DNA of 32,000 nucleotides. Origin: Mycoplasmoides genitalium G37. GTDB taxonomy: Bacteria; Bacillota_I; Bacilli_A; Mycoplasmatales; Mycoplasmoidaceae. This document shows, piece after piece, positions 14,151-21,609 of this stretch. The translations under genes were made by a program, and so were the position numbers. The stretch is taken from positions 510,001 through 542,000 of the forward strand of contig NC_000908.2 in NCBI RefSeq assembly GCF_000027325.1, read 5' to 3'. The notes beneath the pieces were generated by a model, which worked only from the letters and a program-made list of their open reading frames with translations, made no database searches and was not told the origin of the DNA. The number at the start of each line of letters is the position of its first letter. Position 1 is the first letter of the stretch.

Positions 14151-17015
14151 TTAAATTGAATCTGGTTTTAAAATTTTGGACAAATATTGGGCAGTATAAG
14201 ATTTATTAACTTGGTTTATAAGTTGTTCAGGTGTTCCTTGAGCAACAATTTGACCACCATTGTCACCACCTTCAGGACCTAAATCAATGATATAGTCAGC
14301 AACCTTAATAATATCTAAGTTATGTTCTATAACAACTACTGTATCACCATTCTTAATGATTCTTTGAATTATTGTTAATAGTTTGTTTATATCTTCTAAA
14401 TGTAAGCCAGTAGAGGGTTCATCTAAAACAAACAAAGTTTTACCAGTAGATTTTTTTTGTAAAAACTTAGATAACTTAATTCTCTGTGCTTCCCCACCTG
14501 AAAGAAAAGTGACATTAATACCTAATTGCAAATATTCTAAACCAACATCACATAACAACCTTAGTTTACGTGATATATTTGGGATAGCTTTAAAAAATTC
14601 ATAAGCTTCTTTACAAGACATTTGTAAAACATCAAAAATTGATTTTCCCAAATATTTAATTTCCAGTGTTTGTGAATTGTACTTCTTGCCATTACATACT
14701 TCACATTTGACATAAACATCAGGTAAAAAATGCATTTCAATGCGAATCACACCATCACCAAAACACTTATCACACCTACCACCTGGAACATTAAAAGAAA
14801 ATCGTGAATTTGTATATCCTCTTGCTTTAGCTTCTTTTGTGTTGGCAAATAAATCACGAATATCATCAAAAACACTAATATAGGTTGCAGGATTAGAACG
14901 TGGTGTTCTACCAATTGGGTCTTGAGAGACAACAATTATCTTATCAATGTTGTTAGCACCAATTATTTCCTTATATGTATCTTTTTTAACACCTTTACGA
15001 TAAAGAATTCTTTCTAAAGCTGGAACTAATGTTTGATTAATTAAAGAGGATTTTCCAGAACCTGAAACCCCTGTTATCAAAACCAATTTATTTAAAGGAA
15101 TGGTGACATTAATATTTTTCAAATTATTAACTTTAGCACCCTTGATAATAATTGTTTTACCATTACCACTATGTCTATTTTTTGGAATGGAGATTTGTTT
15201 TTTACCACTAAGATATTGTCCAGTAATTGAGTTTGAGTTTTCCATTACTTGTAAAGGTGTACCGCAAGCAACTAATTCACCACCTTCATTACCTGCTTTA
15301 GGACCAATATCAATTAAATAATCTGCCGCTAACATTGTTTCACTGTCATGCTCAACTACTAATAAGGTGTTACCTAAATCACGCATTACCATCATTGTTT
15401 TAATTAAACGCATATTGTCTTTTTGATGCAATCCAATAGAAGGTTCATCCATTACATATAAAACACCAGTAAGTTGAGAACCAATTTGGGTAGCTAATCT
15501 AATTCTTTGTGCTTCTCCACCTGACAGCGTAGAAGCTCTTCTTGCAAGATTAAGATAATCTAAACCAACATTTTTAAGAAAAGAAAGACGATTAATAATC
15601 TCTTTTAAAGCTAATTCACCGATCTTCTTTTGCTCATCATTTAACTCTAGTTTTAATAGAAAATCAATACTTTTATCAATGGAAAGTTCAGTAAAGCTAA
15701 TAATGTCAATTCCTCCTAACTTAACACTTAAAGCGTCTTTTATTAATTTTTTTCCATGACACTTTTTACATGTTATTTCAGACATGTATGCAGAATATCA
15801 TTCTCTACTTACTTGGCTGTTTGTTTCTAGGTGTCTTCTTTTAATTAAATTAGCTATCCCTTCATAATGCTCAAAGCGGATATTCTTAGCACCTGAATTG
15901 GAAATTGTTTTTATTTCAATAGGTTCATCACTTCCTTCTAAAATTAAATTAAGTTGTGACTTATCTAACTGTTCAATTGGTTTATCTAATGGAATTTTAT
16001 AGTGATTAACTAAAGATAAAAAGCGCTGTCAATCCAAAGAAGTTCCATGCACAATATTTTTAAAAATATCAATGGCTCCTTGGTTAATAGAAAGTTTAGA
16101 ATCAGCAATTATCTTGTCTACATCAGGTTCATAACTAAAACCAAGTCCTTTGCAATATGAACATGAACCTAAAGGGGAGTTAAAGGAAAATAATCTTGGT
16201 TCCAATTCACTAATAGAAAAACCACATTTATCACAACCATGATTTTTGCTGAAATTTAATATTGTTCCATCTTCCTTAAGAACTTCTATCTTGCCATTAG
16301 TTAACCTATCAATGGTTTCAATGCTATCAACTATCCTTGAATAAGTTTGATTATCTTTATTGATGATAATTCTATCGATCACTACACTAATGTTGTGTTT
16401 AGTATTTTTATCAAGTTTAATTTCATCATCTAAGGTGTAAATCTGGCCATCAACTAAGACTCTAAGAAAACCTAATTGCTTGTATTTAATAAATTCATTT
16501 GTAAAAATGCCGCGCTGATTTTTAACAGTAGGTGCTAATAATTGCACCTTTGATTTATTAGGTAAATCAAAAATCTGATTAGCAATTTGGTTAATTGTTT
16601 GCGTTTGAATAGAACCATGACCATTAGGACAATAAGGGGTCCCAATTCTAGCTCATAAAAGTCTTAGATAATCATAGATCTCAGTTACTGTACCCACAGT
16701 TGAACGTGGGTTATGTGAAGTGGTTTTTTGATCAATGGAAATTGCTGGTGATAATCCTTCTATAAGATCAACATCAGGTTTATCACTGTTACCTAAAAAT
16801 TGGCGTGCATAAGAAGATAGAGACTCTAAATATCTTCTTCTCCCCTCAGCATAAATTGTGTTAAATGCTAAGGAAGATTTACCTGATCCTGATAGACCAG
16901 TAATAACAACAAATTGATTTTTAGGGATATCAATGTTAATGTTTTTAAGGTTATTTTCTCTAGCACCTTTAACCCTTATAAAATCATTATTTTTTCATTC
17001 CGGTTTCAAAGTCAA
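14151..17015 (-). CDS. uvrA: Excinuclease ABC subunit A (UvrA), ~954 aa; start codon uncertain
   Basis: Fragments 14151..15785 and 16029..16547 plus the upstream region share a frame, joined by TGA at 15798, 16029, 16653 and 16995. N-terminal [37 protein letters not shown], two ABC signatures LSGGEAQR, and Zn-finger cysteines. No ATG exists in the open frame upstream (TAG at 17040-17042). Candidate starts are TTG at 17013-17015 (gives 954 aa) or TTG at 17007-17009. Confidence 0.9.
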
Positions 17016-19494
17016 TGTTTTTAATTGAAAAATTTTTAACTAACTTATTATTAGGATCATTGAAAATAAGCGCAATACCTTGTTTATTTTGATATGAGAT
17101 CAAAAGTCCACGAATGAAATTATAAGCGTGGTTAGTGAAATCATTGCAGCAGTTTATCATTAGTAACTTAGGATTTAACAAAAGTTTAAATAGCAAGTAA
17201 AGCTTTAGACTTTCATTTTTGTTAATTTTGTTTAAATCACTAAATAACATTCAGCTGCTAATACCATTCTTTTTGGTTTGATTTATCAATAAATTAATGT
17301 TGTTAATAAAGTTAAGTTTTTTAAGATTTTTTTGTGATCTTAAAAAGAAATTAATTGTTTTTAATTGTGAATTCAAAACATTAAGATAAAGCTTATTTGA
17401 AGCTTCTAAACGATTGATATTGCACTCTTCTGAATCAATAAAAAAAGTTCTCTTAATTTTCTTGTTTGTTTTTTTAAGTCTTAAGTGCAATGTTTTGTTT
17501 AAAATACAATATCTTTTCATGATGAATTTAATCTTTTGTAACTTTTGATTTGTTTCATCGCGAAAAATTCACTTAACTAAATTAATGTCTTTTAAAAGTA
17601 ATTTGTATTTTTGTTTGCATTTTTTTAGCTTTTGTTTTAGATCATTCTTGGTTTCTTTATTTGTTGTATCTGTTGTTGAAGAAAAACCGCGTGATGCTAA
17701 CAGGAAACTAACAGGGGTTTCAAAATTTAGATCTAAATATTTATTAATAACTTTGTCAACTAGAAAATTTCACTTTGGGGAGTTTAAATCATTTTTTAAC
17801 TTATCTTTTAGCAAACTAAAATGTGGTTCACTACGTCCTTCATTTCAAATAAAATCATTAGAACCACAACTTAAAAACTCATATTTATTAAAGAATTGTT
17901 GAAATTTTTTACTTAGGCTATTTCAAAGTGAAATAAGAACAAAATACAAGTTATTTAACTCATATTTTTGTCAGTTAATTTTTTGATAATTAGCTAATAA
18001 GCTTTCATAAAAATATTGCTTTATTTGAAATGCAAAGTTAAAAGTCTCCAAACTTTTTCTCATGCTGATTAAACCAATTGCATATTGCACTGTATCAATA
18101 AACTGTTTGAAAACTGTTTTTTGGATTAGAACTGAAAAACTGTTATTATGCTTACCTCTATAATGATTTTGATTTAATAAGATGTTTTCTTTTAGTTCAT
18201 TAACCAATTTTTCATGAACATACAAATTGTTTGATTGTTTAACAAAATTTTTAATAAAAGATAAACGTGCTTTGATCAAAAATTCATGAACCTCTTTTTT
18301 CGTTAGAATGAAACGTGCAGACATTATTTTAAGTTCTTGATTAATTGTCTGGTACTTTCAGTTCAAATTAGGACCTGATTTTAAGCTGATAATTTCTTGA
18401 TAAAGATTTTGAATATTAGCAAAGATTTTATTGACTAAATTAATACTTTCATCAATAGTTTCTACAAGTAATTTTGGAGAAAGTAAATCCATTTTCTTAA
18501 TTTCTTTCAAAAGTAAAATTCTTGTTTTAATCCGCTTAGATACAATCTTTTTTTCTAAAATTCTTTTTCTATAAAAATTAAAAAAACTTCTTCACTTAAT
18601 CTTTCAACCACTAAAAATTAAAGAAAAGGTGAATGAATTAATTAATTGCAAAGCATTTTTATGTTGTTTTGAGAATGTTTTCTTAGCATCAAAAAGTCTT
18701 TGTTTAGCTCTTTCAATTTGCAATTTTTCAAAATAACTGTTATCTCGTGATTTAGCTTCATAAGCAGCTATTTTCAGTTTGTTTTTTAAGTTATTTTTTT
18801 GTTCGTTCAATGCATAGTAACGCTCAAAAAAACTTTTTATTACTTTGTTATTAAAAGTAAATAATTGATTGAAAAACATGCAATTAAAATCAACAAGTTC
18901 TCTTTCGTTTTTTTCAATTAAAGTTAAAAAATTATTGTATTCAAAATCAACTTGTTCAAAGTAGATTGAATTAATAAATTTTGATGTAAAAAACTGATTA
19001 ATGACTTTACTAGTTTTTTGATTAACATTTTCAATTTTCAAAATTGAAAACCTAAATAAATCATTAAGCGCATTAAAACCTAAAAATCACTTTAACTGTT
19101 TAGGTATATTCACTAAATTAAAGTAATTTTGATCTTTTTTATAACTTAAATCTTGTTTTAGAAAAATGCTAAATGAATTAGGAAATAACCACTTATTTTT
19201 ATTTCTTAAATCTATCTCTTCACATAAATTAAACTTAATTTTTTGAAGCGGTAAATATTGATGGTTATTAACAAGCAAAAACCCAGAATAGGGTTGTTTA
19301 TTTAACTGTAAAACTTGTGAAAGGGTTTTTCATTGTGCTTGATTTAAATTATCAATGAGATAGTTACCATACTTAAATAATGATAGCTTTGCAACCCCAA
19401 AATAGTTAGCATCTAAAAAGGAGGTACGAATCATTAATAATGACAAATCAACCCACTGTTCTAGATTATCAAAAAGAGATATTTTCTTTAGCAT
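16987..19494 (-). CDS. MG_422: Large Lys/Asn/Phe-rich hypothetical protein (MG422-like), 835 aa
   Basis: Five track fragments (16987..17250, 17251..17520, 17971..18324, 18604..19041, 19087..19278) share one frame. I translated all gaps and found only TGA. ATG 19492-19494 is the first ATG after TAG at 19516-19518; TAA at 16987-16989. I recognise no confident domain. Confidence 0.75.
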
Positions 19495-19531: not shown

Positions 19532-21217
19532 TTAAATAGAAATAATAGTTGAAAGAATTAAGGGTGCTTTTGATGTCATCTTGGTGAATAAATTCATTAC
19601 TGCTCGTTTAATAGAAACCTTCAATTCTTTTGAAATTTCTTTACCTATTCGTTTTTTAATCGTGGTGAAATCCTTAATATCATTAATTTGTTTTTTAATT
19701 AATTCTTCCATTTTTGTTTTTAGTTTATCTTTTTCTGGTACATCTAAAGATACTCCTAAAAAAGAATAAGTTATCTCATTTAAGAATTCACTCTTTTTTT
19801 GATCAAAATAAATGATTATGATCACAACTCCAGATTCTGACATTTGATCACGTTCAAACATAATGCTAGCTCCAATTTCTTGTAATCCAGCAGAATCAAC
19901 ACACTTAGGATTTAATTTCAATTCATTTTTTTTGCTATCTAGTTTTTTGTTTTCAATAGTTAAAACTTCACCGTTAAAAAGAATTAAGATTTGATTTTGC
20001 TCAGCGCCAGCTTGTTTTAAAACCATTGTGAAGTTTATAAAATCCCTATAAAGTCCACCAGTTGGAATAATATATTTTGGTTTTAAAGAACTAACTAAAA
20101 ACTTCATATCTTCATCACTTGCTTGGATAGAAAGGATTTCTCTACCTAAGTTGTAATAACTAACTTCATTACGTGCAATATCATCAAGGATTTGTGCTTC
20201 TATCTCTTCATAGCCAGCAACTTTAGGAGTCATAAAGATAAAAGTATCACTCTTACGATAACGAATTCTTTCATCTTCGTTCATTCCAATTTTGAATAAT
20301 TTAGCATACAACTTATCAGGTGGTGAGGTGAGAACAACAATACTGTTGGTTGAATTGTTAATCTCCTCAATAGAAATGGTATTTAAATGCGTGTTATTAA
20401 ACAATTTTTGACGCACAATTGTGTTAAAGAGATGCACAAATGATTGTGAATAGATAATAAAAGGACGATTTTGCATCCTTGCAATCTGGGCAAGAGTCAT
20501 AACACTGTAAGCATTTGAATCATAACAAGCTACAAATATTCTGCCTTTGGCTGGAGTTATGATCCTGTTTAACTGTTCTAATGACTTGTGTTTAGGTGTT
20601 GTAAAACCACTGTTTCTACCAACTAAACCAACTCCTGTTATTAATAACAATGTATTGTCAGAAAGTTTAGGGATAATTTGATTTAGTTGATTTTCAAAAG
20701 CAATGTTCTTATCATTTAAAACAATGAAATCATCAATAAAAACGATGTAACCATTATCAGTATTTAAAGCAAATCCAAATGATGATGGTAAAGAACTTGA
20801 TACTTTAAAAGGGGTAATAGAATGATTAGAAATTTCGATTGTTTCAAGTGGTTTTAATTCATGAATTTCCAATTTATCACGTGCAATATTAAGTTTGTTT
20901 TCATTAATTTTGCTTTTAATTATAGAAGCGCCTATTGAACTTGTGTAAATAGGAAAAAATCCTACTGTATGGAACAAAAATTCTAATGATCCTAAGTTTT
21001 CAGTAATGGCATTACCTATAAAAATACCTTTAACTCTTGCTTGATTTTCTTGAATTCAACTAAAATCAGGAATAATTTTTTTAACACCTAAAACTGCTGT
21101 TGTTGGTGTTAAGCTACCAACATTAAAGATAAACACATCATTGTCAATTTCAAGCACATAGCAATTTTTACCACGTTCATCTTGACCGCCGAGCGCAAAG
21201 AATTTAATCTTAGCCAT
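19532..21217 (-). CDS. RNase J-family (metallo-beta-lactamase/beta-CASP) paralog with substituted catalytic motifs (MG423-like), 561 aa
   Basis: Track ORF 19532..20977 extends upstream through TGA (21056-21058) to ATG 21215-21217. The N-terminus MAKIKFFALGGQDERGKNCYVLEIDNDVFIFNVG...VKGIFIGNAITENLGSLEFLF aligns to the RNase J N-terminus (ALGG..E.GKN.Y......D......DAG...KG.F.THGHEDHIG). Confidence 0.85.
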
Positions 21218-21219
21218 TT

Positions 21220-21480
21220 TTAACCCCGGAGGTTTAAATTTTTAATCAAATCACGGTAGGTTTCAATATTACGTTCTTTTAGATATTTAAGTAGCCGTTT
21301 TCTTTTTGATACCTTTGTATATAAACCACGCTTAGAAATAAAATCCTTTTTGTTTGCTAACAGGTGGTCTGTTAATTTTTTAATCTGATCTGTTAATATA
21401 GAGATTTGTACTTGCACACTGCCAACATCGTTTTTGTGAAGTTGATGAGCCTTAATGATTTGTTCTTTATCAATTTTCAT
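21220..21480 (-). CDS. rpsO: 30S ribosomal protein S15, 86 aa
   Basis: Intact track ORF MKIDKEQIIKAHQLHKNDVGSVQVQISILTDQIKKLTDHL...KRKRLLKYLK, typical S15. The stop TAA at 21220-21222 lies two bases from the downstream ATG. Confidence 0.95.
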   Translation of the reverse strand: MKIDKEQIIKAHQLHKNDVGSVQVQISILTDQIKKLTDHLLANKKDFISKRGLYTKVSKRKRLLKYLKERNIETYRDLIKNLNLRG

Positions 21481-21609
21481 TAATTAATAAACACGTTGAA
21501 TTATAACAAAATTAGAAAACGGCTCATTGCCAAGGTTAGAAGTAATAAATTCTCCTACTTACTTATTACTTATAATAAATATAGTTTTTATTTTTATTAA
21601 TAAATTCTC

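Follow-up and report, generated by a model that had tools for sequence, protein, structure and literature searches.

A degenerate RNase J2 paralog in Mycoplasmoides genitalium and its probable role as a non-catalytic partner of RNase J1

The J2 gene, its protein family and its fold

The window under analysis, a stretch of 32,000 nucleotides corresponding to bases 510001-542000 of the single-contig M. genitalium genome (580,076 bp), contains the MG423-type gene of an RNase J2 paralog (positions 19532-21217, minus strand; all window positions given below refer to this strand unless the plus strand is indicated), whose product appears to be catalytically dead. Read under genetic code 4, the frame encodes 561 amino acids followed by a stop codon, is free of internal stops and includes one TGA codon specifying tryptophan. 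The product is the M. genitalium ortholog of RnjB (RNase J2), MG423. Immediately upstream lies rpsO, the first gene of the unit, coding for ribosomal protein S15 (21220-21480; Pfam PF00312, 9e-29); direct reading of the sequence gives a spacer of two bases, AA (21218-21219), between the rpsO stop codon (TAA) and the J2 start codon (ATG), which is the arrangement that an earlier note on this DNA had described.

The RNase J family model of NCBIfam, TIGR00649, matched the protein with 730 bits (cut-off 400) over model positions 1-546, i.e. at full length; this score is partly circular, as the model is named ‘MG423’ after this very gene. Support independent of TIGR00649 came from the RNase J entries of the PDB, which were matched with E values of 1e-44 to 1e-16: the top sequence match was RNase J2 of Staphylococcus epidermidis (6k6w; E 8e-44), and RNase J1 of Bacillus subtilis and RNase J of Thermus thermophilus were also among the matches. 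The equivalog model of RNase J1 (RnjA, NF047419) was reached with only 237 bits against a cut-off of 820. In the Pfam scan, no match to Lactamase_B was obtained and RMMBL stayed below its cut-off; the beta-CASP domain was recognized above cut-off at residues 224-344 (20186-20548; PF22505, E 3.9e-7) and the RNase J C-terminal domain at residues 453-561 (19535-19861; PF17770, E 2.3e-9), the latter being modelled mostly at high confidence. In characterised RNase J enzymes, this C-terminal domain is the dimerisation domain.

The AlphaFold2 model of the J2 protein, calculated with 62 homologs, reached a pLDDT of 87 and a pTM of 0.77. Its comparison by Foldseek with 9a5v, 3zq4, 3bk1, 7pcr and 4xwt gave TM scores of 0.84-0.87 over approximately 570 columns; the best match was the integrative model of B. 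subtilis RNJ2-RNJ1 (9a5v), followed by RNase J1 (3zq4) and the T. thermophilus enzyme (3bk1), and the RNase J1/J2 structures scored 0.85-0.87. The complete RNase J architecture, consisting of the metallo-beta-lactamase core, the beta-CASP insert and the C-terminal domain, is thus kept, and the description of the gene product as a full-length RNase J paralog in the earlier note is borne out by family model, PDB matches and fold alike.

Metal-ligand motifs and origin of the degenerate copy

The same note had reported that the catalytic histidine motifs are replaced and that an acidic residue persists in a DDF string, and both the HMMER and the MAFFT alignments agree with this reading. The strings concerned are located at residues 68-77 (GNAITENLGS, 20987-21016), 140-146 (SSSLPSS, 20780-20800), 162-164 (DDF, 20726-20734), 364-373 (IQASDEDMKF, 20099-20128) and 383-393 (IIPTGGLYRDF, 20039-20071). 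When the protein was aligned by HMMER with RNase J2 of S. epidermidis, whose ligand positions are marked by 6k6w and the mutant entries H76A/H78A/H80A/H144A/E166A, these positions were occupied by N69, I71, E73, S141 and D163. The MAFFT alignment to the intact paralog of the same genome gave a consistent picture: the aspartate of motif 1 is replaced by Asn-32 (VFIFNVG, 21116-21136), the HxHxDH signature of motif 2 has degenerated to NxIxEN (N69-A-I71-T-E73-N74), the histidine of motif 3 is substituted by Ser-141, and only motif 4 has kept its aspartate (D162-D163-F164); in the beta-CASP part, the glutamate of motif A is changed to valine, the histidine of motif B to Gln-365 (with the A-S-x-E-D string of this region retained) and that of motif C to Gly-387. 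When motifs 1-4, A, B and C are compared, the acidic residue of motif 4 is therefore the sole survivor of the di-metal site.

A displacement of the ligands, which the earlier note had named as an outcome that would refute its reading, was ruled out: the protein possesses six histidines, none of which aligns with a ligand column, and with the exception of His-210 they are not conserved among relatives. The second paralog of the genome, the MG139-type RNase J1 (genome coordinates 165519-167162), has intact THGHEDH, NHSIPD, SGDY, ASGH and PIHGE motifs. The combination of ligand loss in the MG423 copy with an active-type paralog in the same genome, together with the preserved fold and domain order, corresponds to a pseudo-nuclease as had been proposed. 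Established MBL/beta-CASP chemistry provides the basis for deducing inactivity from ligand loss: with the di-metal site lost, we infer that MG423 would be unable to hydrolyse RNA by the mechanism of its family, since the canonical two-metal chemistry is impossible without these ligands. As judged from its sequence, MG423 would consequently belong to RNase J by descent and not by enzymatic definition, because the catalytic di-metal site is missing.

The loss is not peculiar to M. genitalium. A search of 5.8 billion proteins retrieved 61 distinct protein clusters with the same ligand loss, which originate from Mycoplasmoides, Ureaplasma, Malacoplasma, Mesomycoplasma, Mycoplasma mycoides, Spiroplasma, Mesoplasma, Entomoplasma and Williamsoniiplasma. 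All nine sampled families of the order contain a second copy without HxHxDH next to an intact first copy (J1), and whole-genome searches detected at least two RNase J copies in every one of the 119 genomes, from 28 genera, that were scored for the order, and likewise in 12 of 12 genomes of the genus. The earlier note had suggested to look for the substitutions across the pneumoniae group of mycoplasmas; they are indeed shared there, but the loss is not a peculiarity of this group and represents an ancient state of the whole order.

Within the 61 clusters the former ligand columns are nearly free of histidine, and the columns of the first and second histidine and the aspartate of motif 2, of motif 3 and of motifs A, B and C show entropy percentiles of 43-96, i.e. 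about the variability of an average column, a pattern that speaks against the rebuilding of a metal site. Of the former ligand positions, three are constrained in the dead clade: asparagine at motif 1 (52 of 61 clusters, 85%), asparagine at the last position of motif 2 (82%) and aspartate or glutamate at motif 4 (54 of 61, 89%); in the hominis group even motif 4 carries asparagine. No alternative ligand set is common to the dead clade. Separately from the former ligand positions, a motif specific to the dead J2 proteins, GFTxPNHK, was observed at residues 204-210 (20588-20608), whose Gly-204, Thr-206 and Pro-208 are conserved to at least 93%; His-210 occurs in 45 of 61 clusters, the J1 proteins having lysine in this place. 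A second histidine specific to the dead clade is found at position 371 in 38 of 61 clusters (methionine in M. genitalium). The J2 protein of Mesomycoplasma dispar (cluster P0064) is 673 amino acids long and contains a thioredoxin Pfam domain, which may reflect a gene fusion or read-through in the annotation; M. hyorhinis encodes thioredoxin separately, two genes 3' of J2 (L007:6309-6659).

In the maximum-likelihood tree, a branch with an SH-aLRT support of 99 sets the dead proteins apart from the remainder, and MG423 is excluded from the J1 clade (support 100); as this tree has no outgroup and is unrooted, it does not by itself place the descent of the dead clade within J2. The J2 orthology of MG423 is supported by its higher similarity to J2-type than to J1-type proteins (BLAST scores of 166-214 versus 128-185, with J1 as a separate clade on the unrooted tree), by the rpsO...rnjB-ftsK synteny described below and by the low NF047419 score. 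Acholeplasma-type and Firmicute J2-type proteins have kept the histidine of motif 3 and, in motif 2, the first two histidines together with most or all of the other residues; the histidine of motif C is already missing in both, and some of them read HGHDDQ or HGHFDA at motif 2. Judged from these motifs, the mycoplasma state appears as the end point of a graded series of ligand losses. A single inactivation probably occurred in the common ancestor of the order comprising Mycoplasma, Ureaplasma, Spiroplasma and Entomoplasma, and would have completed a degeneration already begun in the Firmicute J2 proteins. With the Acholeplasma J2 as query toward Firmicute J2 proteins, only Acholeplasma relatives were obtained. 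Graded ligand loss of this kind was seen among Firmicute and unnamed J2-type proteins (L052:3655-5406, L054:3228-4874 and clusters P0062-P0073); the motif C histidine is missing throughout this series, and one of its proteins has asparagine at motif B.

The rpsO-rnjB neighbourhood

In each of the 12 genomes of the genus, the S15 gene lies immediately 5' of J2, and in Mycoplasma pneumoniae rpsO and J2 are the first and second genes of a five-gene operon (PMC12494982). The adjacency is not a general feature of Mollicutes, as A. laidlawii, M. mycoides, Malacoplasma, M. hyorhinis and Spiroplasma do not show it; a functional requirement for the pairing of rpsO and J2 was therefore dropped as an explanation. 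M. pirum has the order rpsO-J2-ftsK and Spiroplasma monobiae the order J2-ftsK. Within 9 kb to either side of 19 RNase J loci no S15 gene was detected beside J2, because the distance between S15 and J2 in Bacilli amounts to 7-15 kb: when coordinates were compared in 80 Bacilli genomes, S15 was found 7-15 kb upstream of the J2-type copy and on the same strand in 10 genomes from three families. Two of these regions, from different families of Bacilli, read rpsO-pnp-(deacetylase or unknown)-dpaA-asd-dapG-dapA-rnjB-ftsK, where dpaA codes for dipicolinate synthase A and dapG for an aspartokinase.

The intervening genes act in 3'-5' RNA phosphorolysis, sporulation and diaminopimelate synthesis, functions that have been lost in the wall-less, non-sporulating mycoplasmas. 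Deletion of these middle genes results in rpsO-rnjB-ftsK and, once ftsK is gone, in rpsO-rnjB; neither a PNPase nor an FtsK domain was detected in the M. genitalium genome. The gene thus occupies the position expected of rnjB, downstream of rpsO-pnp, upstream of ftsK and on the same strand. In S. aureus, PNPase (SAR1250) and J2 (SAR1251) bear consecutive locus tags (PMC4419217). The earlier note was correct in stating that M. genitalium lacks PNPase, but the placement of J2 where pnp usually follows rpsO, to which it had drawn attention, does not point to a functional stand-in for pnp: the position behind rpsO is a relic of the ancestral rpsO-pnp-...-rnjB-ftsK neighbourhood, which confirms the orthology with rnjB and is no sign of a takeover from PNPase.

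Several minor features of this region were recorded. An ORF of 835 amino acids without a Pfam family lies directly 3' of J2 (16987-19494) and occupies the site of ftsK in M. pirum and Spiroplasma; a comparison with the M. pirum ORF next after ftsK revealed no similarity. The M. pneumoniae counterpart of the 835-residue ORF, MPN620, is the third of the five genes of the rpsO operon and has been given a fitness score (F2). Just 5' of the rpsO start codon the sequence reads TTGTTA-N19-ATTAAT (21481-21512); Torres-Puig et al. (2015) listed this element among the sigma-20-like matches (G37 coordinate 531509) and assigned it to MG_423, without evidence of regulation. A DEAD-box helicase gene is oriented divergently beside rpsO (21669-23018, plus strand), and the same helicase is encoded near J2 in a Malacoplasma contig (L006:998-2365).

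Retention of J2 and its probable partnership with RNase J1

The J2 gene is under strong purifying selection. As synonymous sites are saturated between M. genitalium and M. pneumoniae (pS 0.85), dN/dS was not computable for this pair and closer pairs of the genus were used; in the closest non-saturated pair the ratio was 0.067 for J2 versus 0.047 for J1, and across the close pairs the J2 values ranged from 0.03 to 0.07. J2 evolves faster than J1 (mean pairwise identity in the genus of 56% versus 68%), the metallo-beta-lactamase core being its best-conserved part within the genus, and in all genomes examined its reading frame runs uninterrupted over the full length. The M. pneumoniae ortholog MPN621 shares 86% identity with MG423. 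Both J1 and J2 have been reported in all Mollicutes (Grosjean 2014, PMC4014445), RnjB is retained in JCVI-Syn3.0 (PMC4993169), and MG_423 has been counted among the core essential genes (PMC3216540). According to the M. pneumoniae datasets of 2025 (PMC12494982), MPN621 is scored essential (0.397 versus 0.399 for J1), was detected in 116 mass spectrometry experiments and is present in 341 copies per cell compared with 385 for J1, near-equal numbers that are consistent with a 1:1 complex and do not demonstrate one; over-expression of MPN621 alone was without effect on the transcriptome, which is uninformative.

All mycoplasmas retain the MG423-type J2, and the most likely reason is a partnership with the intact J1 in which J2 itself is not catalytic. 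For MG423 itself we consider it fairly probable that this RnjB ortholog without a di-metal site was inactivated once and has been preserved for its association with J1 (MG139). J2 would pair with its intact paralog through the retained C-terminal domain and surfaces of the core and, as an obligatory non-catalytic subunit, would stabilise J1, shape its choice of substrates, or both. This explanation is preferred because the C-terminal domain is retained, because J1/J2 heteromers exist elsewhere, and because the J1 and J2 of M. pneumoniae are near-equimolar and do not differ in essentiality. Such heteromers occur in B. subtilis and S. aureus, where the active site of J2 is dispensable (PMC4419217; PDB 9a5v); indeed, mutation of the J2 active site in S. 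aureus had no effect on growth (review PMC4419217). In the accessible literature, no nuclease assay, pull-down, cross-link or other biochemical or interaction experiment on any mycoplasma J2 was found.

The main rival is a non-catalytic role independent of J1, in which the protein would bind RNA or serve as a scaffold; it could, for example, be an adaptor for the ribosome, for RNase Y or for the DEAD-box helicase, or an RNA chaperone working through the former substrate channel. The core and not the C-terminal domain is most conserved within the genus, and GFTxPNHK as well as N32/N74/D163 show a clade-specific conservation that pairing does not explain; these residues, among them His-210, could serve something besides pairing. 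The co-transcription with rpsO in the genus and the divergent helicase gene next door would likewise suit such a role; the rpsO linkage, however, is a relic that is missing outside the genus. Wherever a species with two RNase J paralogs has been characterised, the two form heteromers (PMC4419217; PDB 9a5v), and this, together with the near-equimolar and equally essential J1 and J2 of M. pneumoniae (PMC12494982), makes a function apart from J1 unlikely.

Still less probable is a nuclease with a different metal site, in which carboxylate and amide groups, e.g. of E73, N74, D162/D163 and E369/D370, would bind Mg2+ or Mn2+. Such a site could draw on the acidic residue present at motif 4 in most clusters, on the asparagine conserved at two former ligand positions and on the invariant E-D pair behind motif B. 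This pair is conserved in active enzymes as well, though, and is not a metal ligand there; the hominis-group orthologs with asparagine at motif 4 and the free variation of the other ligand columns leave no common ligand set, and no sampled genome of the order contains the dead copy without an intact J1. As to a functionless remnant in decay, the lost catalytic residues and the faster evolution compared with J1 are what one would expect of it; full-length frames throughout, low dN/dS ratios, retention in Syn3.0 and in all 119 genomes scored for an order well known for losing genes, and an essential M. pneumoniae ortholog that is expressed at several hundred copies per cell have already refuted it.

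The partnership with J1 is not a new proposal. The inactive state and the interpretation as a partner are already known and have been in the literature since 1999-2002: a passage of the review PMC8501993 (2021) refers to Callebaut 2002 for MG139/MG423 and the corresponding M. pneumoniae proteins as an active:inactive beta-CASP pair, the same pair is mentioned in a passage of PMC3155973 (2011) where Aravind 1999 is credited with the idea of a regulatory inactive form, and MPN621 is annotated as ‘Probably non-catalytic ribonuclease J2’ (Dataset EV2, PMC12494982, 2025). The entry MG423 of this literature is the very gene described here, with a published conclusion one line long, and its direct ortholog MPN621 shows no difference in this respect: the rpsO-J2 operon is shared, and the same motifs are replaced. 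What the present analysis adds is the proposed single ancient origin, the stepwise degeneration from the Firmicute J2, the selection figures and the explanation of the gene order by synteny collapse; as a discovery it adds little, since the inactive state was published in 1999-2002. In practice, a protein that databases label ‘ribonuclease J’ almost certainly has no nuclease activity; where whole-cell and minimal-cell models give MG423 an exonuclease function, they should treat it as a cofactor of J1, and its mode of action is a question of narrow scope within RNA decay in minimal cells.

Besides MPN621, the Firmicute RnjB proteins (B. subtilis YmfA and the J2 proteins of S. aureus and S. epidermidis) are among the known systems close to MG423: family, fold and domain order are the same, the neighbourhood is shared (rnjB before ftsK and downstream of rpsO) and the motif C histidine is missing in both. 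Firmicute J2 is a weak or dispensable catalytic partner of J1; the Firmicute and Acholeplasma proteins possess the motif 3 histidine and all or most of motif 2, which MG423 has lost, and still bind metal and cut RNA weakly. The role of MG423 would resemble that of J2 as it is thought to act in staphylococci, and that of CPSF100 and IntS9, which serve CPSF73 and IntS11 in eukaryotic 3'-end processing. With confidence only slightly above even, it may further be proposed that the only 5'-3' exoribonuclease of all mycoplasmas, and of the synthetic minimal cell as well, has the dead J2 as an obligatory and essential subunit without catalytic activity, that this J2 is a bacterial counterpart of CPSF100/IntS9 derived from one ancient inactivation, and that N32/N74/D163 and GFTxPNHK mark a new regulatory or RNA-handling surface. 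Like MG423, CPSF100 and IntS9 are paralogs of an active MBL/beta-CASP nuclease that have lost their metal ligands, and they are obligatory heterodimer partners through their C-terminal domains (review PMC8501993); they arose, however, by independent duplications in another domain of life, and the pairing demonstrated for them is deduced for MG423. Compared with Integrator and CPSF chains, the J2 model gave TM scores of about 0.5-0.55 at an identity of only 12-14%.
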